Made by a program: the position numbers and the translations under genes | Part shown: piece by piece, positions 1,869 to 56,000 of the stretch | Layout: every line of letters begins with the position of its first letter | Position numbering within the stretch: position 1 is the stretch's first letter | Notes under the pieces: model-generated | The model's input: the letters and a program-made list of their open reading frames with translations, nothing else | Databases searched by the model: none | What the model was told of the DNA's origin: nothing | Source: a virus | Taxonomy: Duplodnaviria > Caudoviricetes | Length of the DNA stretch: 64,000 nucleotides | IMG/VR virus record: IMGVR_UViG_3300025598_000001 | Span: 2,195-66,194 of that record | Strand: one strand, 5' to 3'

Positions 1869-3407
1869 GTGGAAATCATAGACAACAAGGCATTGTTGCT
1901 TAATTTGCGTAACCCTAACAAGGTTACAACGGTTATACCCAAGAGTAAACAAGTCGGTAACAATCAAGTGGTTGTTAACTGGGGCTTGGATGAAGCACGA
2001 GTTTTAAGAAACCTACAAATAAAAAACATCCCATCACCTATTATTGGTAAGTACAACTGGCCCGGAATGTACAAGCCGTTTGAACATCAAAAAGATACTG
2101 CGTCATTCCTTACACTAAACCCAAGAGCTTTCTGCCTAAACGAACAGGGAACTGGTAAAACTGGCTCGGTCATTTGGGCGGCTGATTACTTAATGAAAGT
2201 AGGTAGAATCAAGCGTGTATTGGTTATCTGCCCTCTATCTATTATGGATTCGGCATGGAGAGCCGACCTGTTTAAGTTTGCTATGCACCGCCATGTAGAT
2301 ATTGCTCACGGTTCAAAAGAAAAGCGTACAAAAATTATTAACTCCGATGCTGAGTTTGTCATTATCAATTACGATGGTGTTGAAATTGTGCAAGAAGAAA
2401 TAGCTAATGGTGGGTTTGACCTAATCGTTATTGATGAAGCGAACGCTTATAAAAATTCACAGACTACACGTTGGAAAACACTAAACCGAATCCTCAAGCC
2501 TGATACATGGCTATGGATGTTAACAGGTACACCAGCCGCACAATCACCGGTAGACGCATATGGTTTGGCTAAGTTAGTAAACCCACAAGGTGTACCTAAG
2601 TTTTACTCAGCGTTTAAAGATTCTGTGATGTATAAGATTTCTCAGTTTAAATGGGTAGTTAGACCTGATGCGCAGAAGGTAGTATTTGAAGCATTACAAC
2701 CAGCTATTAGGTACACTAAAGAAGAGTGTCTTGATTTGCCTGAACTAATGTATACCACAAGGGAAGTCGAACTTACGCCCCAACAGAAAAAATACTACGA
2801 CCTGCTACGCAGACAACTTGTTATGCAGACTTCAGGCGAGCAAGTTACTGCTGTTAACGCTGCAGTGGGATTAAGCAAGCTACTACAAATATCTTGTGGC
2901 GCAGTGTATTCGGATTCGGGGGAAACCTTGGAATTTGATATTAAGAACCGCTATAAGGTGTTAAGGGAAGTGATTGATGAAACAAAGCAAAAGATATTAA
3001 TATTTGTACCATTTAAAAATACAATTAAAATCCTTGCGGAAAAACTACAAAGCGATGGGTTTACAACTGCTGTTATCAACGGCGACGTAGCCCATAATCA
3101 ACGCACTGAGATTTTCAAGAAATTTCAAGAAACTCCAGACCCACGCATCCTACTTATCCAACCTCTTGCGGCGGCACATGGAGTGACTTTAACGGCGGCT
3201 GATACCGTTGTTTGGTGGGGTCCTACACCAAGCCTAGAAGTATATGCACAAGCTAATGCACGTGCGCATAGAGCCGGACAAAAGCATCCAGTTACAGTAG
3301 TAAGGTTGCAAGGAAGCAACGCTGAAAAACATTTGTATAAAATGCTTGACAACCGTATCACTGATAATACAAAATTAGTTGATCTTTACAAGGATTTACT
3401 TGATTAA
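1869..3407 (+). CDS. SNF2-family (SF2) DNA helicase
   Basis: EQGTGKT Walker A, VICPLS, LIVIDEAN, LTGTP, HGVTLTAA, QANARAHRAGQ. Confidence 0.93.
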   Translation: MEIIDNKALLLNLRNPNKVTTVIPKSKQVGNNQVVVNWGLDEARVLRNLQIKNIPSPIIGKYNWPGMYKPFEHQKDTASFLTLNPRAFCLNEQGTGKTGSVIWAADYLMKVGRIKRVLVICPLSIMDSAWRADLFKFAMHRHVDIAHGSKEKRTKIINSDAEFVIINYDGVEIVQEEIANGGFDLIVIDEANAYKNSQTTRWKTLNRILKPDTWLWMLTGTPAAQSPVDAYGLAKLVNPQGVPKFYSAFKDSVMYKISQFKWVVRPDAQKVVFEALQPAIRYTKEECLDLPELMYTTREVELTPQQKKYYDLLRRQLVMQTSGEQVTAVNAAVGLSKLLQISCGAVYSDSGETLEFDIKNRYKVLREVIDETKQKILIFVPFKNTIKILAEKLQSDGFTTAVINGDVAHNQRTEIFKKFQETPDPRILLIQPLAAAHGVTLTAADTVVWWGPTPSLEVYAQANARAHRAGQKHPVTVVRLQGSNAEKHLYKMLDNRITDNTKLVDLYKDLLD

Positions 3408-3431: not shown

Positions 3432-3842
3432 ATGGATGAAAAAGTAGAATCACCGCTTGAGAAGTGGACTCGAATCTACATTAAGATGAGAGAAAAGAAG
3501 GCGGAAGTAACGCATGAATTAGAAGAAAAAATTGCCAAGATAGAAGAGGATATGAAGGTTATTAAAACTGCTATCCTTGACCATATGAAAGAGATTGGCG
3601 CTGAAAGTTTAAAGACAAATGCGGGTGTAGTGTATCGTACTGTACGTACCACATATTCAACATCTGATTGGGAATCTATGGGCAAGTTTATTCTTGAACA
3701 TGGTGTGCCTGAATTATTGGAGAAGCGGTTGCACCAAACCAATATGAAGGCATTTTTAGAAGACTACCCCGAGTTGCTTCCTCCGGGGCTTAACGCAAAC
3801 ATGGAGTATTCCGTGACCATAAAAAGGAGTAAAAATGGTTGA
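3432..3842 (+). CDS. Conserved phage replication-module protein (coiled coil plus beta C-terminus)
   Basis: RBS AACAGGAGAAT; SLKTNAGVVYR...DWES...ELLEKR...LPPGL pattern seen in APSE-like replication modules. Confidence 0.7.
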   Translation: MDEKVESPLEKWTRIYIKMREKKAEVTHELEEKIAKIEEDMKVIKTAILDHMKEIGAESLKTNAGVVYRTVRTTYSTSDWESMGKFILEHGVPELLEKRLHQTNMKAFLEDYPELLPPGLNANMEYSVTIKRSKNG

Positions 3843-4107
3843 AGAATCTTTTGTCCCGATAGAAGGGGTAGCCAAGCATTTTTCGGTGTCTATCTCGACT
3901 GTACGTGCATGGATTCGTCAGAGCCTAGTACCCTCACTGAAGATTGGCGGTGTATACCGTTTCAAGATTAGCGAAGTAGAACAAGCCCTACGAAAACTAA
4001 GCGGCGGAGAATTAGTAAGAGAAGAAGTAGATGGGAGTCTAACGGTGCAAGCACCTGCAGGATCAACCCAAATGGTATTAAATTTTAACCCTGACGAAGA
4101 TATTTAA
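3835..4107 (+). CDS. Excisionase/MerR-like helix-turn-helix DNA-binding protein
   Basis: VAKHFSVSISTVRAWIRQSLVPSLKIGGVYRFKISEV matches the HTH_17-type pattern. Confidence 0.85.
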   Translation: MVEESFVPIEGVAKHFSVSISTVRAWIRQSLVPSLKIGGVYRFKISEVEQALRKLSGGELVREEVDGSLTVQAPAGSTQMVLNFNPDEDI

Positions 4108-4118
4108 GGAGAATGACA

Positions 4119-4988
4119 ATGAGTGATTTAGCTCTATTTAAAGGTGGTTTACCTTCCTACTTAAAAGGTACAGATGATGCAACTAACGCACTTGCTGGTA
4201 CAAAAGATGGTGGTGGTTTAGGCGCACGTCGCATTAGTATTAAAGGCGGAGTATTCCGTGAGTTCATTGGCGGTAAAGAATATCGTGTATCTGAAGAACG
4301 TTCAATGAATGTAGTTATTGTTAAAGCTGCACCGAAAGTATCCCGTATTTACTATAGCGGAAGCTACTCCGAAGGTGAAGCCGTATCCCCAACTTGCTGG
4401 TCATCCGACAGCCAAAAACCTGATGAAGCCGTTAAGAATAAGCAGTCAGCCACCTGCTTAAACTGTGCGCAAAACATTAAGGGTTCTGGTCAGGGTGATA
4501 GCCGTGCCTGCCGTTATCAACAGCGCCTCGCAGTCGTGATCGATGGTGAGATTGATAAGGAAGAAGTTTACCAATTAGTACTGCCACCAACTTCCGTATT
4601 CGGTGACGGTGAGAAAGGTAAGCTCCCTCTACAGGCATATGCTCGCCATCTTAAGAACCACGGTACCCCCATTACCGGTGTTGTTACTGAGATGCGGTTT
4701 GACACAGCAAGCCCTACACCAAAGTTGGTATTTAAACCTGTGCGTCCTGTGACCGAAGAAGAGTTCTTAAAGATTCAAGAACTTAAGGATTCTAAAGAAG
4801 CAGTACAGGCTATTACTTTGACTGTAGCGCAGACTGATGGTGTTAAGGAAAAAGCTAAACCTGCACTATCCGCACCTGTAGTTGAAGAAGTTGAAGTTGA
4901 AGAACCTAAGAAAGCAGTTTCCAAGAAAGCTCAAGTATCTAACGAACCTAAGTTAGAGAGTTTGATTGGTGAATGGGATGATGCTTAA
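4119..4988 (+). CDS. Putative ssDNA-binding/annealing protein
   Basis: RRISIKGGVF, Cys cluster PTCWSSD...CLNC...SRACR, acidic aromatic C-tail GEWDDA; lies between helicase and primase. Confidence 0.65.
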   Translation: MSDLALFKGGLPSYLKGTDDATNALAGTKDGGGLGARRISIKGGVFREFIGGKEYRVSEERSMNVVIVKAAPKVSRIYYSGSYSEGEAVSPTCWSSDSQKPDEAVKNKQSATCLNCAQNIKGSGQGDSRACRYQQRLAVVIDGEIDKEEVYQLVLPPTSVFGDGEKGKLPLQAYARHLKNHGTPITGVVTEMRFDTASPTPKLVFKPVRPVTEEEFLKIQELKDSKEAVQAITLTVAQTDGVKEKAKPALSAPVVEEVEVEEPKKAVSKKAQVSNEPKLESLIGEWDDA

Positions 4989-5000
4989 TTAATGTTTTAC

Positions 5001-5092
5001 GGGGGGAAAACGCAGGTCGGCTCGGCGACCTTAAATAGCCTGTATGCAATCATTGTTGATATGATTCTCCTTCACATTGCGTGAGTACCCCC
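5001..5092 (+). ncRNA. Candidate structured RNA with loop-E/sarcin-ricin-type internal loop and an anti-SD segment
   Basis: GGGGG/CCCCC and ACGCA/TGCGT helices flank GAAA/GAGTA; inner hairpins GGTCG/CGACC and AATCAT/ATGATT; contains ATGATTCTCCTT. Confidence 0.6.
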
Positions 5093-5107
5093 ACCTTAAA
5101 GGTGGCT

Positions 5108-7981
5108 ATGAACAATTTAGAATTTTTACAGCAAGTCCTTGGCGACGAAGGATACTACTGCATAGTTGGATTAAAGAAGGATTCGGACAAACCCGTACAG
5201 AAATTCTTTAAAACACTAGAAGATGCTGTGGCAGTTGCAGAGAATTTAAAGAACGAAGGCTACAACGCTTACTATGCGCTAGCCACGTTTGAAGATGGGA
5301 AATCTAGAAAAACTGCTAATGTAAAGCAGTTGCGGTCTTTGTTTATTGATTTGGATTGTGGTCAGGGTAAACCCTATGAAACACAAGAAGAAGCGTTACT
5401 AGACTTAAAACGGTTCTGTCAAGTAACAAAAATGCCGAAACCAACGCTGGTAAACTCCGGCGGGGGTATACACGCATACTGGGCTTTAGAAGAGCCGCTA
5501 AGCCGTGAACAATGGACACCCCTAGCTGAGAAGCTAAAGAAGATGTGCGACGAGCATGACCTCTTTGCTGACCCCGTAGTAACTGCGGATTCGGTGCGTA
5601 TTCTACGAGTCCCCGGAACTTTAAACTTTAAAAATGATGTTGCTAGACCAGTTGATTTAATCGGTAGCTCATCAGGCTCATATAGTTATGACACACTAAA
5701 AGATGTTATAGGTGATCCGGTACTAGAGAGAAAACCATATATCCCACGTGGGGAGATGGACGAAGTAACTAAGGCTATCCTTGGTAACTATACCAATAGG
5801 TTTAAGACAATCCTGATGAAGACCATGAAAGGTGAGGGCTGTCAACAACTTGAGCATATAATTAAAGCGCAAGCCACAATGCCTGAACCGCAGTGGAGAG
5901 CAGGGCTATCTATTGCCAAATTTTGCATAGATGCGGATATTGCAATTAAAAAGATATCTGAACATCACCCCGAATATAGCCCAGAGTTTGCAGACCGCAA
6001 GGTACGTGGTATCAAAGGCGGACCATATACTTGCGCTAAGTTTGAAGAATATAACCCCGGCGGTTGCGATGGTTGTGTAAATAAAGGGGCAATTAAATCC
6101 CCCATCGTGCTGGGTCGTGAAGTATTAGAAGCTAACGATGACGATAACATTGTAGAAGATGTTCCGTTCCAAGTAGAACAAGGGCACACACAGACATACG
6201 TTATACCGAAATACCCTGAGCCATACTTCCGTGGTAAGAACGGAGGAATCTTTAAGCGTGTAATTAAACAAGAAGACGAGATCGAAGTTCAGGTTTATCA
6301 CAACGATATTTATGTATCACGCAGACTACTGGATTCGGATGTGGGTGAGGCTGTAGTCGTTCGATTACATCTACCGCAAGACGGAGTACGGGAGTTTACC
6401 GTGCCATTAACGGCAGTAACTTCCAAGGACGAACTTAGAAAGTATATATCTTCTAAGGGTGTAGCCGTAGTTAAAACTGACGAGCTTATGTCTTACCTGA
6501 CAACGTGGGTAAACCACCTGCAATATAAAGGTAAAGCCGATACCGCTAGACGGCAGTTCGGTTGGGTAGACGACAAATGCGAAGCGTTTGTGCTTGGCGA
6601 TAAAGAGATCAGTGCTGATAGGGTAGACCATAATCCAGCATCCTCGGCTACAACACAAATGTTTAGTGCATTTAAAACTAAAGGCACGATGGAAGCATGG
6701 AAAGAAGCCATGAACTTTTACAACAAGCCTGACATGGAAGTCCACAAGTTTATGATTGGGTTATCGTTTGGTTCTATTTTTACCGAGTTCACTCCAATCA
6801 ATGCGTCGTTATTACATGTGTACAGCCCTGAATCCGGCATTGGTAAAACTACTGCGCTGTTTGCAGGAGCCAGCATTTGGGGCGAACCTACCAAGCTGTT
6901 GCTAAAGGAAACCGATACAGTAAACTCTAAGATGAACCGTGCCGAGGTATATAACAACCTGCCGTTGATGCTGGATGAGTTAACAAACTCTACGGCTAAA
7001 GACGCTAGTGATTTTGTATATCAATACAGTTCCGGTACACAGAAAAACCGTATGTCAGGCGCTTCTAATGCGGAACGGGTAAGGGGTGAACCTTGGAAAC
7101 AAAACGGCATCAGCACCGGAAATAGCTCCCTAATGGAAAAGATTAGCGCATATAAAGCTATTCCTAAAGGTGAAGCCATGCGTATTTTAGAAGTACGTGC
7201 CCGAAAAGTAGAGGGTTTGGATAAGACCGAAACCGACGTATTGAGTGCGGCTTTACAGAATAACTATGGGCATGCTTACCTACCTTACCTGCAGTATGTA
7301 ATGAATGACATTACAGGGATTAAAGAACTATATAAATCTACACAATTAAAGATAGATAAGCGTTGTGAGTTTGGACCTGAAGACCGATTCCATTCGGTGC
7401 TTGTAACTAACGGCATCATGGGGTTGATGGTTGCTAAACGTGTAGGATTAGTTAATTATGATATTAAACCCGTCGTAGATTTTATTGTTGAAATAGCTAA
7501 GAATGCCAAGAGTCAAGTTAAATCTATGGACGTTGATGCGGAAGGTGTATTAACTAATTTTGTGGCAGAGAATTGGAATAGTATGCTACGAATTAAAAGT
7601 ACGGAAGACACCCGTGTAAATAAAAAAGATGAGGTAGACCACTTAGTTATTCCCGATGCTACCCCAAAACTTACTTTTGTTATACGATACGAGTATGATT
7701 TAAAAATGATGTATATATACCCCAATCCTTTACGGGAGTGGTGTGTTAAAAAGCAAATAAATTATGAAGGACTTATTGATTCTTTAAAGCGTGGTAGGAC
7801 CAAAGCTCAAATGGAAAAGAAACGTATGGGCAAAGGCACTAGAATTAACTTACCACCACTAAAGGTACTGTGGGTTAACTGCGATGGGTTTATGGATGAA
7901 GACAGAGAAGAACAAATTGCCTCCGTTGCGCAACACAAGGAAGCCATTGAAAGTGCTGAAGGAGGGGCAAGTGTGTCCTGA
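5108..7981 (+). CDS. Primase-helicase (RepB-like primase N-terminus, DUF927-type region, P-loop helicase)
   Basis: FIDLDC, NSGGGIHAYW, RILRVPGT primase motifs; CAKF...CDGC; FGW; ESGIGKTT Walker A; LMLDE Walker B. Confidence 0.88.
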   Translation: MNNLEFLQQVLGDEGYYCIVGLKKDSDKPVQKFFKTLEDAVAVAENLKNEGYNAYYALATFEDGKSRKTANVKQLRSLFIDLDCGQGKPYETQEEALLDLKRFCQVTKMPKPTLVNSGGGIHAYWALEEPLSREQWTPLAEKLKKMCDEHDLFADPVVTADSVRILRVPGTLNFKNDVARPVDLIGSSSGSYSYDTLKDVIGDPVLERKPYIPRGEMDEVTKAILGNYTNRFKTILMKTMKGEGCQQLEHIIKAQATMPEPQWRAGLSIAKFCIDADIAIKKISEHHPEYSPEFADRKVRGIKGGPYTCAKFEEYNPGGCDGCVNKGAIKSPIVLGREVLEANDDDNIVEDVPFQVEQGHTQTYVIPKYPEPYFRGKNGGIFKRVIKQEDEIEVQVYHNDIYVSRRLLDSDVGEAVVVRLHLPQDGVREFTVPLTAVTSKDELRKYISSKGVAVVKTDELMSYLTTWVNHLQYKGKADTARRQFGWVDDKCEAFVLGDKEISADRVDHNPASSATTQMFSAFKTKGTMEAWKEAMNFYNKPDMEVHKFMIGLSFGSIFTEFTPINASLLHVYSPESGIGKTTALFAGASIWGEPTKLLLKETDTVNSKMNRAEVYNNLPLMLDELTNSTAKDASDFVYQYSSGTQKNRMSGASNAERVRGEPWKQNGISTGNSSLMEKISAYKAIPKGEAMRILEVRARKVEGLDKTETDVLSAALQNNYGHAYLPYLQYVMNDITGIKELYKSTQLKIDKRCEFGPEDRFHSVLVTNGIMGLMVAKRVGLVNYDIKPVVDFIVEIAKNAKSQVKSMDVDAEGVLTNFVAENWNSMLRIKSTEDTRVNKKDEVDHLVIPDATPKLTFVIRYEYDLKMMYIYPNPLREWCVKKQINYEGLIDSLKRGRTKAQMEKKRMGKGTRINLPPLKVLWVNCDGFMDEDREEQIASVAQHKEAIESAEGGASVS

Positions 7982-8168
7982 CGGAGTGGTTATTGATATA
8001 AACTGGGATAATTTTCATGTGGGGATGTCTGTTTTTGTCCCTGCCGTCAACCTATCAATGTTAGACAAACAAATGCAAACTATTGCAAAAGATAAAGGAA
8101 TTGTAATAAAAGGTTTTGACCGAATTGAAAATAAAAAGCTAGGTATGCGCTTTTGGAGAATTGTGTAA
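7884..8168 (+). CDS. Hypothetical protein (start uncertain)
   Basis: Last ORF of the replication operon; ends GMRFWRIV. Confidence 0.6.
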   Translation: MGLWMKTEKNKLPPLRNTRKPLKVLKEGQVCPDGVVIDINWDNFHVGMSVFVPAVNLSMLDKQMQTIAKDKGIVIKGFDRIENKKLGMRFWRIV

Positions 8169-8176
8169 TATACTAT

Positions 8177-8257
8177 ACGTGCAACAACACATTCTCCTGT
8201 TGCATGTTCTCGTGAGGAACTCCTTGATCCCCGGCTCAAAAGGCTGGGGATTTTTTT
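8177..8257 (+). ncRNA. Candidate small RNA with an anti-SD hairpin loop, ending in an intrinsic terminator
   Basis: 10-bp stem 8177-8186/8198-8207 with loop ACACATTCTCC; second CTCCTT at 8220; -10-like TAATAT/TATACT at 8166-8174. Confidence 0.6.
8227..8257 (+). terminator. Rho-independent terminator at the convergent replication/late junction
   Basis: ATCCCCGGC-TCAAAAG-GCTGGGGAT followed by a T-tract. Confidence 0.85.
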
Positions 8258-51644: not shown

Positions 51645-51673
51645 TTGCAAACGATATCAAACTCTGTTAAAGT
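51645..51673 (+). promoter_or_regulatory. Putative sigma70 promoter
   Basis: TTGCAA-17-TAAAGT with extended -10 TG. Confidence 0.6.
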
Positions 51674-51724
51674 ATTACTTATGGATCGGGGCATATTGCT
51701 TACGACATACTGAAGGAGAATCAA

Positions 51725-52309
51725 ATGAAACAAGTAAACGCAATCGAAGCTCAAGTAAAAGCATTAGCTAATACTAAGCCCGTAGAGAAAGCAGTAAGCA
51801 TTAACGATAGTGAGAAAGCTCTGATTATTGAGTTCGTGCAAGTAGCGAATCAGGCTACAAACAAGAACCAACAACTGGCTGAATTGCTATATGCCAATGG
51901 CAAGCGTAGCTATCACTTTGTAGGTGCTAACGACGAAGATAAATCGTTAGTGGCTTTCCGTAATCAAGTGATCGGTTACATTGTGCAGGGTTTTGATAAA
52001 GATGCTCAAAAGCTCTATAGTGCAGAACCAAAGTCTTTAAATATGACTAAGCAAGTGGAAAGGACTGTATTAACTACTAAAACCATTCCTACCTTGTTTG
52101 GCAATATTAAAAAGGCAATGGTCAAACTTGAAGGCAATATCGCATCAGGTAAAACCGAAAAGGCAAAACCTAAAACTCAAGAACAAATGGCTCGCTATTA
52201 TGTTAAGAAAGCCCTTGAGTCAATAGGCAAGTGCAAGAATGGTTGGGAAGGTATGCTCAAGGATAAGCAAGCCCTTGAAGCCCTTGCAGTATTGAAACAA
52301 GTTAAGTAA
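51725..52309 (+). CDS. Hypothetical early protein, own transcription unit
   Basis: RBS GAAGGAGAATC, upstream promoter and downstream terminator. Confidence 0.8.
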   Translation: MKQVNAIEAQVKALANTKPVEKAVSINDSEKALIIEFVQVANQATNKNQQLAELLYANGKRSYHFVGANDEDKSLVAFRNQVIGYIVQGFDKDAQKLYSAEPKSLNMTKQVERTVLTTKTIPTLFGNIKKAMVKLEGNIASGKTEKAKPKTQEQMARYYVKKALESIGKCKNGWEGMLKDKQALEALAVLKQVK

Positions 52310-52330
52310 TACATCTAGTAGTAACTTAAC

Positions 52331-52355
52331 AGCCACCCTTCGGGGTGGCTTTTTT
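52331..52355 (+). terminator. Rho-independent terminator
   Basis: AGCCACCC-TTCG-GGGTGGCT plus T-tract. Confidence 0.92.
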
Positions 52356-52369
52356 GCGTCCTAATTTTT

Positions 52370-52570
52370 GGCTGTAACCTTACAGCCATATTGATACCAG
52401 TGACTTGAAGCAGCGTTAAGCATAGGGTCATCAGGGTCGTTTGGTCATGTGTTTAGGTGTTAACCTGTGCACAGGTTAACAGTATTTTTTGGCTTTGTCA
52501 ATAGGGTAGATGTAAGGTTACATCTAAGATACCAGTGACTTTAAGCAGCATAAAGCATAGGGTTAACCCT
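52370..52570. repeat. Two operator-plus-36-bp direct-repeat units flanking a perfect 24-bp palindrome
   Basis: GATACCAGTGACTT(G/T)AAGCAGC..AAGCATAGGGT at 52393-52428 and 52528-52563; TGTTAACCTGTGCACAGGTTAACA at 52458-52481. Confidence 0.85.
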
Positions 52571-52572
52571 TA

Positions 52573-52764
52573 TATTGTTCCAGTTGTTCCTGATAAAGTT
52601 CCTGAAAAAACCCTTATAAATCAATAAAGTGCCTAAAGTTCCAAAAGTTCCAGCACTTTTTGGGTTTGGGCAAAATCAAACCTGAAAGAAGCACTCTTTT
52701 TACTCAGACCTTTTTGGAACCAAAGCCTATTTACCTTGGAACTTTTGGAACATATGGAACAATA
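52573..52764. repeat. Inverted GTTCC/GGAAC array, candidate replication origin
   Basis: GTTCC at 52577, 52586, 52598, 52638, 52647; GGAAC at 52716, 52738, 52747, 52756; mostly 9-bp spacing. Confidence 0.65.
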
Positions 52765-52825
52765 TTAGAAATCATATACTTAGCTGGCTACAACCAAAGC
52801 ACTAATAGGGACAAATACTGTTTAA

Positions 52826-52854
52826 TTGACCTTGATAGACTTTGACAGTATAAT
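52826..52854 (+). promoter_or_regulatory. Sigma70 promoter
   Basis: TTGACC-17-TATAAT; operator copy at 52892-52909 downstream. Confidence 0.8.
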
Positions 52855-52948
52855 ATTTATATGGATTGGGAATTGTCAGCTCGACCATTGCAGATGTAAC
52901 TTTACATCTAAGTTATTAACTGACAAACAACTTAACAGGAGAATCACT

Positions 52949-53158
52949 ATGTCAAAAGTAAATCATCTATGTAGACAATGTGGCGACAGTATCGACACTC
53001 GCCGTTGGGCATTAGGTTATAAACATTGTCTTTTTTGTGGTGAGGAGTTAGCCAAGCAAAAGAAGTTCACCATTGCACCGATGAACAAGAGCAACTACTT
53101 CTGTATCACAGACCCCGAATTGCTAAAGCAGTTAAATCCTAAACGCACAGGAGAATAA
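52949..53158 (+). CDS. C4 zinc-finger protein (DksA/TraR-like spacing)
   Basis: CRQCGDSIDTRR...CLFC; RBS AACAGGAGAAT before MSKV. Confidence 0.65.
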   Translation: MSKVNHLCRQCGDSIDTRRWALGYKHCLFCGEELAKQKKFTIAPMNKSNYFCITDPELLKQLNPKRTGE

Positions 53159-53159
53159 C

Positions 53160-53378
53160 ATGAGCCTACACGCAACCAAAGCATCACGCAAACGCTTATC
53201 TTTAATCGAGGAAGCCAACGCTAACGCATTGAGTAACAGAATCAAAGAGTTAGAAACCGAGGAAGCCAAGCGCAGACTCATTGCCGAATCTAACCCATTG
53301 CTTTATCTGTTTGGCTATGCACTTAACCCAAAGACCTATTTAGAAACCTACACAGGAGAAGAAGATGAGAGTAACTAA
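53160..53378 (+). CDS. Hypothetical protein
   Basis: RBS ACAGGAGAAT. Confidence 0.65.
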   Translation: MSLHATKASRKRLSLIEEANANALSNRIKELETEEAKRRLIAESNPLLYLFGYALNPKTYLETYTGEEDESN

Positions 53379-53649
53379 AGTAAAACCTGTATCACTAAGT
53401 AAGCCAGTAACAAGGCGCACTAAGTTCGTGTATCAGTCGGACATTGATCCCGCAGTCATAATCCATTCGAACAAAACGCACCGAACTGTTGACGAAGCAT
53501 TTAGAACGGCTGACTATGCCACACCAATATGGCGGTGTGAAACCGATTGGGATAAGTTATTACCTATTTTGAAATGGGTAGCGATTTGGTTCGGCACTTT
53601 GTGGCTATTGTATGAATTGGCAGTATGGTTTGAAAGGGTAATCAAATGA
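53365..53649 (+). CDS. Hypothetical protein with C-terminal TM helix
   Basis: RBS ACAGGAGAA; RTVDEAFR.ADYA; hydrophobic end. Confidence 0.65.
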   Translation: MRVTKVKPVSLSKPVTRRTKFVYQSDIDPAVIIHSNKTHRTVDEAFRTADYATPIWRCETDWDKLLPILKWVAIWFGTLWLLYELAVWFERVIK

Positions 53650-53798
53650 GGACAGGAGATATCAAGCGTATCAATGGTCGGATTTATTGCATCATTGGTT
53701 GGAGTGATGGATTAGTGCATCTTCAATCAATGGATGAGGAGAAGTATTTCCTGACGATACCCCGCACCCATTTCGGTGGGCTGAAAACTGGACAGTAG
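53646..53798 (+). CDS. Hypothetical protein, 50 aa (not in ORF track)
   Basis: ATGA overlap; MRTGDIKRINGRIYCIIGWSDGLVHLQSMDEEK... Confidence 0.55.
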   Translation: MRTGDIKRINGRIYCIIGWSDGLVHLQSMDEEKYFLTIPRTHFGGLKTGQ

Positions 53799-53817
53799 TG
53801 TCAAAGTCTTCTATAAT
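53789..53817 (+). promoter_or_regulatory. Sigma70 promoter
   Basis: TGGACA-17-TATAAT. Confidence 0.7.
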
Positions 53818-53870
53818 ATATTATAGAGTGGTAAAGCGTAGTAAATATTATTAACAACAGGAGAATCATC

Positions 53871-54824
53871 ATGAGTATAAGTCATTACAATGCGGCTGGA
53901 GTAAACACACGCAACAGTTTCAATACACCGCCAAGCAATAACGGAAGTAACCTTACATCTGAAGTAGAGGTTGGGTCGATACCATCAATCAGTAGTAGCG
54001 CAATGCTGGTCGAGCTAAACCTTAGCGTATGGACAGGGCGCAAGTTTGATAAACAAGTTAGTGCCGAGATCGATACACAGAAGCACACATCAACTCGGGC
54101 TGGTAACTATAACAAGAAGCTATTTGCTGATGAGCCAGTCTTTGATGCAATCGGTAAACACGCTGGCAATACACGAACCTATCACTATCATGCGACTATG
54201 CCATGGTCAGATAGCGGACTGCGCCTACTAACTACTAGTATGTTCTTTGATTATCAGAAGCAGATCACCCAGTATGAAGCCGATTTCAACGGCAAGGTGG
54301 CAGACTTCTTGAACCAATATGACAAGCTGGTATTGCAAGCGCAGATGAAGCTAGGCAGTCTATTCAATCCCGAGGACTATCCCGACGCTGAATCAATCCG
54401 AGATAAGTTTAAGTTCTCGGTGAAGTATTGCCCTGTGCCTGAGGTCGGCGATTGGCGCATTGATGTTGGCAATGAAGCACAAGCACTGCTAAAGACAAGC
54501 TATGCCAACTACTATCAAGCCAACCTAGAACAAGCATACAAAGATGTATGGGATAGAACACATGAAGCACTTACTAATATGAGTAGCAAGCTGGCTGGTA
54601 ATAAGAAGCAGATATTCAGAGATACATTAGTGTCGAATGTAACCGAGATGATCGGGCTATTGGATAAGTTCAATGTAACTGGCGACACAAAAATGAAGCT
54701 AGCTAAAGCCAAGCTCGAATCTGTAATGCTCGGCATTACACCTGATGCACTGAGAGAAGATGACTACTTGCGCCTAGATACAAAGACGAAAGTAGATTCA
54801 TTATTAAAAGAGTTTTCGTGGTAA
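53871..54824 (+). CDS. DUF3150-like protein
   Basis: SSAMLVELNLSVWTGRK.D, TMPWSDSG.RLL, LGSLFN.EDYP; upstream of the AAA/vWA pair. Confidence 0.7.
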   Translation: MSISHYNAAGVNTRNSFNTPPSNNGSNLTSEVEVGSIPSISSSAMLVELNLSVWTGRKFDKQVSAEIDTQKHTSTRAGNYNKKLFADEPVFDAIGKHAGNTRTYHYHATMPWSDSGLRLLTTSMFFDYQKQITQYEADFNGKVADFLNQYDKLVLQAQMKLGSLFNPEDYPDAESIRDKFKFSVKYCPVPEVGDWRIDVGNEAQALLKTSYANYYQANLEQAYKDVWDRTHEALTNMSSKLAGNKKQIFRDTLVSNVTEMIGLLDKFNVTGDTKMKLAKAKLESVMLGITPDALREDDYLRLDTKTKVDSLLKEFSW

Positions 54825-54875
54825 CCGCAGTTCCTCACAATCGTAGCACCTATTAACAACATAAGGAGAATCATC

Positions 54876-56000
54876 ATGGCTAAAGCCATCGCAACAGCAG
54901 ACCGCATTTATGCACAATCCCTCGACGAGTGTGTCGATTCAATCCTAGCAACTGGAAGTAAACTTACTACCTTAGTTCAAGGTCATATGGGGACAGGCAA
55001 ATCATCTATCCTAAAGATGTTAGCCAGCAAGCTACCCGATCATGTGCCTTGTTACTTTGACTGCACCACGAAAGACTTGGGTGATCTGATGTTACCGAAG
55101 ATACTGCGTGACGATAGTGCAGATGACTTTGTTCGGTTCGTGCCTAACGAGGAGATGGGACTACATCATGGTAAGCCAATCATTCTAATGATTGACGAGT
55201 TCGGTAAGGCTAACCCAATGGTTAAGAACGGCATGATGCGTGTGATGTTAGAACGCACAATGGGTAGTAAGAAGTTACCTGATGGATCGATTATCTTTGC
55301 AACTACTAACCTCGGCACAGAAGGTGTCGGTGACTTACTCATGCCACATCATAGAAATCGTATCACCACAATACGCATGAAGAAGCCGACTGCAACGGAA
55401 TGGATCGAAGGGTTTGCTTTCAATGCTGGTATTCACCCATCAATGATCTTATGGGTTAAAGAACATGGTGAGCAACTGTTCCAATCGTTTGAAGATGTAG
55501 AGAAACCTGATGATGAAGTCGGTGGTAATCCATACATCTATCACCCACAAGCGCAACGACCATCTTTCGTTACTCCAAGATCGCTGGAACTGGCATCACA
55601 TTGGCTATGGGCTAAGGATAGAATCAGCGAGAACGCATTGAAGTCGAATCTAATCGGCACTATCGGTGATCGTGCTGGCTCTGACCTCGGTGCATACATC
55701 AAGCTGGTAGATGAGTTGCCTCGCCAAGAAGATATCAAGAACGATCCGATGAACGCTAAAGTTCCTAGCAATAGTTCAGCAGTCGTGATGGTTGTCTATC
55801 GTGCATTGGCTACCATGAACAAGGAATGGATCGATCCATTCATGGACTATCTTGGTCGGTTAGATATGGAAGCGCAATCATTGTTTGCTATGCAAGTTCG
55901 TAACCCTAAATACCAGAAGCAAGGACTTGTCATGACCAATAAGAAGTTTACTGCATGGTGCATGGCTAACAACTTTATGTTTACCGCAGATAAGAAGTAA
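54876..56000 (+). CDS. MoxR/dynein-related AAA+ ATPase
   Basis: GHMGTGKS Walker A, LMIDE Walker B, ATTN sensor, NR finger, TPRS. Confidence 0.88.
   Translation: MAKAIATADRIYAQSLDECVDSILATGSKLTTLVQGHMGTGKSSILKMLASKLPDHVPCYFDCTTKDLGDLMLPKILRDDSADDFVRFVPNEEMGLHHGKPIILMIDEFGKANPMVKNGMMRVMLERTMGSKKLPDGSIIFATTNLGTEGVGDLLMPHHRNRITTIRMKKPTATEWIEGFAFNAGIHPSMILWVKEHGEQLFQSFEDVEKPDDEVGGNPYIYHPQAQRPSFVTPRSLELASHWLWAKDRISENALKSNLIGTIGDRAGSDLGAYIKLVDELPRQEDIKNDPMNAKVPSNSSAVVMVVYRALATMNKEWIDPFMDYLGRLDMEAQSLFAMQVRNPKYQKQGLVMTNKKFTAWCMANNFMFTADKK

Follow-up and report, generated by a model that had tools for sequence, protein, structure and literature searches.

The window analysed here is a 64,000-nucleotide (nt) stretch of a 66,194-bp IMG/VR virus record that has direct terminal repeats. 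At positions 5001 to 5095 of its plus strand, between a gene for a protein of 291 amino acids (aa) and a primase gene, lies an element that comparison with related sequences identifies as a real and independently folding RNA of that strand. Every helix that an earlier sequence-only reading had named at this place was found in the sequence. The phage source was freshwater metagenomes, and every sequencing run listed for 4300-5900 was a DNA run. The stop codon of the upstream gene is separated from the element by 12 nt, and the last paired base of the element is separated from the primase AUG by 15 nt. The interval 4700-5300 had neither promoter-like nor terminator-like sites by scan, which makes read-through into the element from the upstream gene probable. 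The 291-aa protein was assigned to phrog_27714, of unknown function, and gave no match against Pfam. ARAGORN found no tRNA or tmRNA genes in the window, and the 4.1-kb region had no DNA match in phage records. The parts of the element, followed by the flanking genes, are given below.

5001 to 5005, plus strand: 5' strand of the outer closing helix P1a, GGGGG, paired with 5088-5092; a sixth G stands at 5006
5006 to 5009, plus strand: GAA plus A, the 5' half of a loop-E/sarcin-ricin-like internal loop, with GAA (5006-5008) opposite AGUA (5084-5087)
5010 to 5014, plus strand: 5' strand of the inner closing helix P1b, ACGCA, paired with UGCGU at 5078-5082
5015 to 5030, plus strand: P2 hairpin of the family core, GGUCG-GCUCGG-CGACC (stem 5015-5019/5026-5030, loop GCUCGG), which resembles the P1 hairpin of Pistol RNA
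5031 to 5044, plus strand: conserved linker UUAAAUAGCCUGUA, from sequence comparison with relatives
5048 to 5066, plus strand: variable hairpin P3, AAUCAU-UGUUGAU-AUGAUU (stem 5048-5053/5061-5066), from folds
5067 to 5077, plus strand: single-stranded CUCC-UUCACAU, kept in the subtype of the window; together with 5061-5066 it is the anti-Shine-Dalgarno (anti-SD) segment of the sequence-only reading
5078 to 5082, plus strand: 3' strand of P1b, UGCGU, from the covariation count
5083 to 5087, plus strand: G plus AGUA, the 3' half of the loop-E-like internal loop, from the sequence and the frame comparison
5088 to 5095, plus strand: 3' strand of P1a, CCCCC, plus the ACC tail, from the frame comparison
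5091 to 5105, plus strand: hairpin CCACCU-UAA-AGGUGG with the Shine-Dalgarno (SD) sequence of the primase gene, from folds; 5091-5092 are common to P1a
4113 to 4988, plus strand: upstream gene, 291 aa with an acidic C-terminus ending in EWDDA and the stop, from the list of open reading frames and its translation
5108 to 7981, plus strand: primase/helicase gene, 957 aa, DUF927

Structure and covariation of the element

The element is modular, and consists of the closing stem with the loop-E-like module and the ACC tail, the core, the variable hairpin and the CUCC-UUCACAU strand. The core consensus is near-invariant and reads GUCG-GCNNGG-CGAC followed by UAAAUAGCCYGUA. At the position of P3 a hairpin of other sequence was found in the loci L067, L064, L112, L158 and L160, and UUCACAU recurs elsewhere as a hairpin loop. 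The tail following the closing stem is ACCUUAAAGG, and the element is devoid of a U-tract. Minimum-energy folds of 5001-5092 and of 4995-5115 gave P1a, the GAA/AGUA loop, P1b and the two inner hairpins. That the structure goes beyond chance is deduced from covariation and not from folding energy.

The major data for this deduction were obtained from a count over 33 aligned elements having both the frame (a G-run and GAA facing AGUA and a C-run) and the core, with 14 pairs and 500 shuffles. Paired cells made up 98.4% in the 33 elements compared to 87.7% in the shuffles, and 37-60% when the partners were slid. Both-side (compensatory) changes were observed in 9 of the 14 pairs, a number reached by none of the 500 shuffles, and the covariation score of 0.345 (0.147 in the shuffles) was likewise reached by none. 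Covariation, the lack of which the sequence-only reading had named as evidence against its structure, is thus strong among these related elements. It was observed for the inner helix and for the fourth pair of P2 even though neither had been used in picking the sequences. For P1b, all four of the counted pairs had both-side changes, and 206 of 240 cells were paired, against 38-110 of 240 in shifted registers. In P1a, compensatory A-U replacements were observed as GGGAG/CUCCC (L002 and L198) and as GAGGG/CCUC (L099).

A set of 48 distinct frames was collected with a search expression that fixed GAA, AGUA, at least four outer pairs, and a C-run followed by NCC. The positions adjoining GAA/AGUA were found to pair in 47, 47, 43 and 39 of the 48 frames, by G-C, G-U, A-U, C-G or U-A alternatives, and 86% of cells were paired in register compared to 16-46% in shifted registers. 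The 3' tail was ACC in 45 frames and GCC in 3, the NCC having been demanded by the expression. Across positions x2 to x5 of the 48 frames there were 20 G-U cells and 1 A-C cell, and this asymmetry indicates that the selected structure is that of an RNA, or at least of the top strand, rather than of a DNA cruciform.

A loop-E-like module is present in the element, as judged from its sequence. The pairing of GAA with AGUA is the defining signature of the sarcin-ricin or loop E (G-bulged) motif, in which 5'-GAA-3' stands opposite 5'-AGUA-3' between two helices, and the strand polarity is the same here. The x1:y1 position beside the module was non-Watson-Crick in 38 of the 48 frames, with A.G in 16, A.A in 11, C.U in 7, C.A in 2 and others besides, while A-U was found in 10. 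Since GAA and AGUA were fixed by the search expression, it is their recurrence that counts and not their invariance. The likeness is one of sequence signature, the S-turn with a bulged G being a three-dimensional feature of the known motif. Unlike an obligatory motif, the module is optional here, as copies of classes B to D have a continuous closing stem.

Distribution of the core and the slot before the primase

The core pattern GGCNNGGC-N6-AAAYAGCCNGTA was scanned over viral stretches, and at least 115 of these matched. Among the matches listed, 107 distinct hairpin-bearing instances remained after the removal of duplicates and chance matches, and these represented both phage and prophage sites. 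All 107 had a 4-bp stem around the loop, and the outermost (fourth) P2 pair, which was unused in the selection, was A-U in 54, C-G in 41 and G-C in 11. An association was also observed between loop and linker, with loop U accompanying linker U in 53, loop G accompanying linker C in 52, and loop U accompanying linker C in only 3. A looser pattern showed that the linker tolerates the variants AAAUAACC, AAAUAUCC and AAAUAUCU; it added about nine true variants, most of the new matches being due to chance in GC-rich coding DNA. In a 596-Gb genome collection, 93 of the 120 listed matches were without a hairpin and were deemed chance, as is expected for 17 fixed bases, and four further listed matches with three flanking pairs also looked like chance. 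The real matches among those listed came from prophages of Paraburkholderia, Pandoraea and Burkholderia and from a few metagenome bins. The cultured Burkholderia phage Bcep176 carries a copy in the unannotated gap between gp27 and gp28, which was found with a class D copy. When compared to phage records, the 47-nt core gave only chance matches of 21-22 nt, and a class C copy gave no match.

Wherever the flanking genes were callable, the element lay between genes and on the gene strand, and a start codon of that strand usually followed within about 130 nt. The contexts were diverse. Some copies follow an acidic-tailed gene of about 300 aa and precede the gene for a primase, an 88-aa protein or a 76-aa protein. 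Others follow a ParB-like gene and precede a helicase, or stand ahead of another primase-like gene, and in GC-rich prophages copies occupy the leaders of small genes. Class B copies lie about 120 nt before the gene for a protein of about 200 aa with weak small-terminase similarity (TerS-like), behind a repeated promoter-like unit. Three distinct instances, representing six loci (L202, L287, L297, L124, L146 and L162), are followed directly by a Leu-like or Met tRNA gene of the same strand; in the Pandoraea prophages L202, L287 and L297 about 6 nt at the 5' end of the tRNA fall within the 3' strand of the closing stem. Over 105 motif loci ARAGORN called a total of five tRNA genes, the other two being without placement relative to the motif. 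In L119 and L123 the element is followed by what by eye resembles a terminator, but the scan tool gave no flag.

Several further observations were made at these loci. In L158, L160, L127, L153, L169, L171, L185, L196 and L138 another small hairpin is conserved 10-30 nt after the element, between it and the helicase ribosome-binding site; its stem is CWRG/CYWG and its loop CGG(A/U)U(N), as in CAAGCGGAUACUUGG. The prophage fragment L172 has two full core copies on the minus strand (1321-1346 and 2732-2757), 1.4 kb apart, and L141 has two matches to the looser pattern (2715-2733 and 3166-3184), one of which meets the stricter pattern. A Betaproteobacteria-1 RNA (L153:2909-3032, 86 bits) was found 1.2 kb upstream of the motif, and an RT-15 RNA (L111:6593-6775, 143 bits) was found in a prophage fragment with a class C copy; these two RNAs support betaproteobacterial hosts.

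The place of the element was also followed from the side of the primase. Searches with a single primase gave 27 loci, and searches with an alignment of ten primases gave 80; the L011 primase (L011:3001-5874) was excluded from this alignment because of an in-frame stop, due to a sequencing error or a pseudogene. The 80 alignment-derived loci, 3 of the first set and the window gave 84 sequences, of which the 170 nt before the start yielded 60 distinct regions. The frame was present in 30 of these 60, in keeping with the loop E signature claimed by the sequence-only reading, and the inner core was present in 12. The shortest frame interior was a GCGA tetraloop (L024), and the longest exceeded 100 nt. 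A CCRCC...GGYGG hairpin around the SD sequence, within 40 nt of the start, was found in 38 of the 60, and A-to-G changes preserved G-U pairing in relatives. In the relatives with short hairpins, a C-rich strand is able to pair with the upstream G-run or with the SD sequence. Other relatives had only a G+C-rich hairpin with a U-rich tail, which was terminator-like by scan in L105 and L097. In L101 an int-alpA RNA motif (RF02996) was found at 1420-1486 of the plus strand, directly 5' of the homologous primase, with 37.4 bits against a threshold of 35.8 bits. Related phages seem to swap RNA devices before the primase gene, a single intergenic slot being filled by the element module, by int-alpA RNA or by a plain terminator.

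Two other features of the window lie near this slot. A 90-aa HTH_17 (AlpA/excisionase-like) protein is encoded at 3835-4107 on the plus strand, two genes 5' of the primase, and the combination of an HTH_17 gene with a DUF927 primase recalls the P4-type alpA-primase arrangement. The region 8140-8255, which holds the 8177 RNA of the sequence-only reading, lies between the convergent primase and 1866-aa genes. It contains ACATTCTCCTGTTGCATG, then a hairpin CCCCGGC...GCTGGGG and then seven T, and probably includes a terminator.

Role of the element

The sequence-only reading had offered a cis element controlling primase translation as an alternative to a trans-acting RNA, and the anatomy fits the former better. 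As the preferred reading we tentatively propose, at slightly less than an even chance, that the element would be a cis-acting RNA module that abuts, and helps to mask, the primase ribosome-binding site; its effect on primase translation, and any processing, is what we infer from this model. P1a and the hairpin CCACCU-UAA-AGGUGG abut and share two cytosines, and the states with 5+4, 4+5 and 3+6 bp in P1a and the SD hairpin were calculated at −31.0, −31.1 and −30.2 kcal/mol, respectively, a balance that is approximate since nearest-neighbour energies ignore the loop-E module. Near-equal states would mean that the primase SD sequence is never wholly unpaired and that it stacks on a large folded domain. 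This pairing balance, together with the terminators found in the same slot of relatives, suggests a cis device keeping primase output below that of the upstream gene. In the proposed mechanism, the acidic-tailed 291-aa gene and the primase gene downstream would share one transcript that includes the element. The C-run and ACC tail on the 3' side of the element would stack on, and swap base pairs with, the hairpin burying the SD sequence, and the folded module and this hairpin would together keep the primase less translated than the upstream gene. The module may additionally mark a point of RNA processing or stability, and relatives would reach a similar effect at the same place by means of plain intrinsic terminators. 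If correct, the proposal would indicate how the level of primase is adjusted against that of the abundant upstream protein.

Besides the approximate energies, several observations weigh against this proposal. The minimum-energy fold of 4990-5120 was without the architecture described above, and its energy was no better than that of shuffles (z = −0.49, with 52 of 200 folding as well); for 5001-5092 the value was z = −1.19, with 24 of 200 shuffles folding as well. The core was also found in contexts without SD masking, namely about 120 nt upstream of the TerS-like gene behind the repeated promoter-like unit, before the terminator-looking hairpins of L119 and L123 (seen by eye and unflagged by scan), and directly upstream of, or overlapping, tRNA genes. 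Control of the primase is therefore not the common function of the family. The ACC tail is similarly kept in contexts without a GGUGG SD sequence. The invariant core must bind or do something beyond the control of a primase, the candidates being cleavage, RNase P recognition, a ligand and a host factor.

The foremost alternative, although doubtful, is that the element is an RNA-processing module. It would be either a self-cleaving ribozyme, related to Pistol by descent or by convergence, or an RNase P substrate (tRNA-acceptor or 4.5S-like) cut at the first G of the G-run. In either case the cut would release a structured RNA or a primase mRNA whose 5' end is protected. The stem has G as its first base and C as its last, and ACC comes next in 45 of the 48 frames; 4.5S RNA and tRNA precursors share a stem end of G...C followed by ACC. 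The same-strand tRNA genes immediately downstream of three distinct instances, with the overlap of the closing stem in Pandoraea, favor processing, as do copies that resemble free-standing RNA genes (among them L119, by eye). In a permissive Rfam scan, Pistol (RF02679) was the best match in all six regions, with 18.7 bits for the window, 19.8 for L176, 22.8 for L328, 21.3 for L343, 20.8 for L208 and 19.7 for L235 and with E-values of 0.1-2.2, but all of these scores are below the gathering score of 34.5 bits. The alignments covered model positions 1-27 with high posterior probability, corresponding to the P1 hairpin, the A-rich linker and the first P2 strand, and the remainder was deleted. Small ribozymes typically combine near-invariant unpaired nucleotides and variable stems with a scattered occurrence between phage genes. 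Pistols are reported near phage genes (PMC6154101), and the same paper defines Pistol by a G-U cleavage junction and by a six-base-pair pseudoknot that connects the P1 loop with the P2-P3 junction. This pseudoknot was not found in 106 instances, where loop-to-downstream pairing was no better than with shuffled downstream sequence. The longest helix was 4 bp in 41, 5 bp in 38, 6 bp in 16, 7 bp in 10 and 8 bp in 1, compared to 3 bp in 1, 4 bp in 25, 5 bp in 31, 6 bp in 22, 7 bp in 22 and 8 bp in 5 for the shuffled control. No conserved G-U junction could be placed between P2 and P3, and the Pistol model deletes those positions in every alignment. The conserved sequence of the hairpin loop also gave no covarying partner, the only association being that of loop and linker (U/U, G/C).

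It is likewise doubtful, though conceivable, that the core represents a new catalytic or ligand-sensing RNA class in Betaproteobacteria phages, which would be an offshoot of the Pistol fold with the pseudoknot lost and the enclosing stem gained. If so, it might cut transcripts near replication, packaging and tRNA genes, or switch expression on a cellular signal. The half-resemblance to Pistol makes testable both the diversification of a ribozyme fold by module loss and gain and the self-cutting of the element RNA. The family offers strongly conserved unpaired nucleotides and more than 100 distinct copies, and testable carriers are the cultured phage Bcep176 and prophages in sequenced Burkholderiaceae.

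The sequence-only reading had favored a processed trans-acting antisense RNA, which we consider unlikely. An exposed (AUGAU)UCUCCUUCA would pair with early ribosome-binding sites and, as P1 C4 or P4 CI do, would silence its targets, here the early genes after expression of the replication genes has begun. The complements of 10-13 nt that had been reported at four early ribosome-binding sites were confirmed and are as follows.

51711 to 51723, plus strand: early-gene ribosome-binding site, 13 nt complementary to 5062-5074, the longest match
52937 to 52946, 53859 to 53869 and 54863 to 54874, plus strand: further complementary sites, by sequence match

The 10-mer AGGAGAATCA has four copies on the plus strand (51714, 52937, 53859 and 54864), each 1-2 nt before an ATG, and occurs once on the minus strand, inside the element. 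Its chance expectation is 0.10 per window, and five matches were obtained in none of 100 shuffles. When the 33-34 nt interior was dinucleotide-shuffled, 8 of 500 and 14 of 500 shuffles gave matches of at least 13 nt (p about 0.02-0.03), which is weak support. However, one repeated leader accounts for all four targets, which are thus not independent, and half of the complement (AUGAUU) is base-paired within P3. At least four early genes in 51650-54900 of the plus strand share this leader, which ends ...(TT)AACAAC..AGGAGAATCA(N1-2)ATG. A leader of like kind (aatcgtagca...AGGAGAATC) was observed in the complete relative G001, and by appearance these are repeated promoter/leader cassettes.

As a general property, trans action was not supported. 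In the five other complete family-carrying genomes (G001 to G005), compared with 500 shuffles each, the complementarity of interior to genome was at chance, with 105, 499, 486, 192 and 390 of the 500 shuffles doing at least as well. Of the anti-SD segment that was expected to be conserved, the UUCA end is part of the UUCACAU block that recurs in unrelated contexts, and the extended complement AUGAUUCUCC was found only in the nearest subgroup (the window, L029 and L067/L068). The motif CUCC was present in 38 of 74 non-redundant family interiors compared to 18 expected, which favors the antisense role, and GGAG was not enriched (5 compared to 6.2 expected); several members (L190, L089, L123 and L187) are nevertheless without any CUCC. 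In the nearest complete relative, G001, GAUUCUCC is retained and three start sites have the 9-mer AGGAGAAUC, so that sites with this 9-mer are present in the two genomes whose element carries GAUUCUCC. In five relatives without GAUUCUCC in the element, the copies of AGGAGAAUC numbered 0, 1, 0, 0 and 0, three of these records being only 64-76% complete. The P3 stem is shared by the window and G001 through descent, and so these two are not independent. The topology of a closing stem with two hairpins and the site just 5' of a P4-alpha-like primase also speak for an antisense RNA, but no C4 match was obtained. The anti-SD idea was rated as possible for the clade of the window, and it does not appear to be a property of the family.

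A riboswitch-like sensing RNA was judged improbable. In such an RNA the core and junction would form the pocket and the closing stem would set the expression platform, either the SD hairpin or, in L119 and L123, the terminator-like hairpin. The invariance of the core nucleotides beside variable stems, the overlap of the 3' strand of the closing stem with the anti-SD and the usual proximity to a same-strand start codon are consistent with this. Furthermore, UUCUCC at 5065-5070 could pair with GGGGAA at 5003-5008, but this alternative state is far less stable (−18.4 compared to −31 kcal/mol). The downstream genes are mixed (primase, helicase, 88-aa protein, TerS-like protein and tRNAs), and no ligand is suggested by the evidence.

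A DNA-level element (origin, primase-recognition hairpin or packaging site) or a small coding sequence is most improbable: the location in the replication module beside primase or helicase genes, the class B copies in a long non-coding region before the TerS-like gene, and the 30-codon plus-strand (4992-5084) and 18-codon minus-strand frames readable through the element are countered by the 20 to 1 excess of G-U over A-C, by an orientation that follows the gene strand, by loss of the plus frame (which in L067 meets a stop within the linker), by interior lengths that vary by non-multiples of three and by the stem covariation, which coding leaves unexplained. Small open reading frames on either strand were rejected since the frames are not conserved.

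Relation to known RNAs

No Rfam 15 family claims the element at gathering thresholds in the window, a check that the sequence-only reading had proposed. The same scan gave only unrelated RT-15 RNA, Betaproteobacteria-1 RNA and tRNA at 13 motif loci, and only the int-alpA of L101 at 18 primase loci. In the 105 motif loci ARAGORN listed only neighbouring true tRNAs, and no tRNA-like domain was found in the element. An intrinsic terminator was rejected, as 4700-5300 has no terminator-like site and no U-tract follows the stem. The putRNA of HK022 was rejected because its architecture, two side-by-side stem-loops without an enclosing stem (PMC9378689), differs. A description of the motif was not found by full-text literature searches, although the IMG/VR catalogue of 8,495 candidate structured RNAs (PMC10690425) may list it in supplementary tables that lie outside the text covered. 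The family therefore appears, provisionally, to be undescribed, being without an Rfam family, an annotation in Bcep176 or a matching literature consensus. If truly undescribed, it would be a widespread addition to the short list of conserved structured phage RNAs.

With Pistol the element shares the 4-bp P1 hairpin UCG...CGA, the G..GGC loop, the (A/U)UAAAUA linker and the first P2 strand. Unlike Pistol, it is enclosed by an outer stem, and the named hosts here are Betaproteobacteria where those of Pistol are Firmicutes. Given the absence of the pseudoknot and the scores below threshold, membership was rejected, and the element is deduced to share a module with Pistol. The int-alpA RNA of L101 and the intrinsic terminators of L105 and L097 hold the same position as the window element, 5' of the homologous primase, and are unrelated to it in sequence and fold.

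The C4 and CI antisense RNAs of P1/P7 and P4 are processed by RNase P. No match to C4 (RF01695) was obtained at the gathering threshold, nor at E-values up to 10 on 4900-5200, and target complementarity does not appear to be a family property here. C4 and CI resemble the element in that the two ends form a closing stem around a pair of inner hairpins, and in having a stretch complementary to ribosome-binding regions. The placement is also alike, as P4 CI lies upstream of the alpha primase and the window element lies upstream of a DUF927 alpha-like primase.

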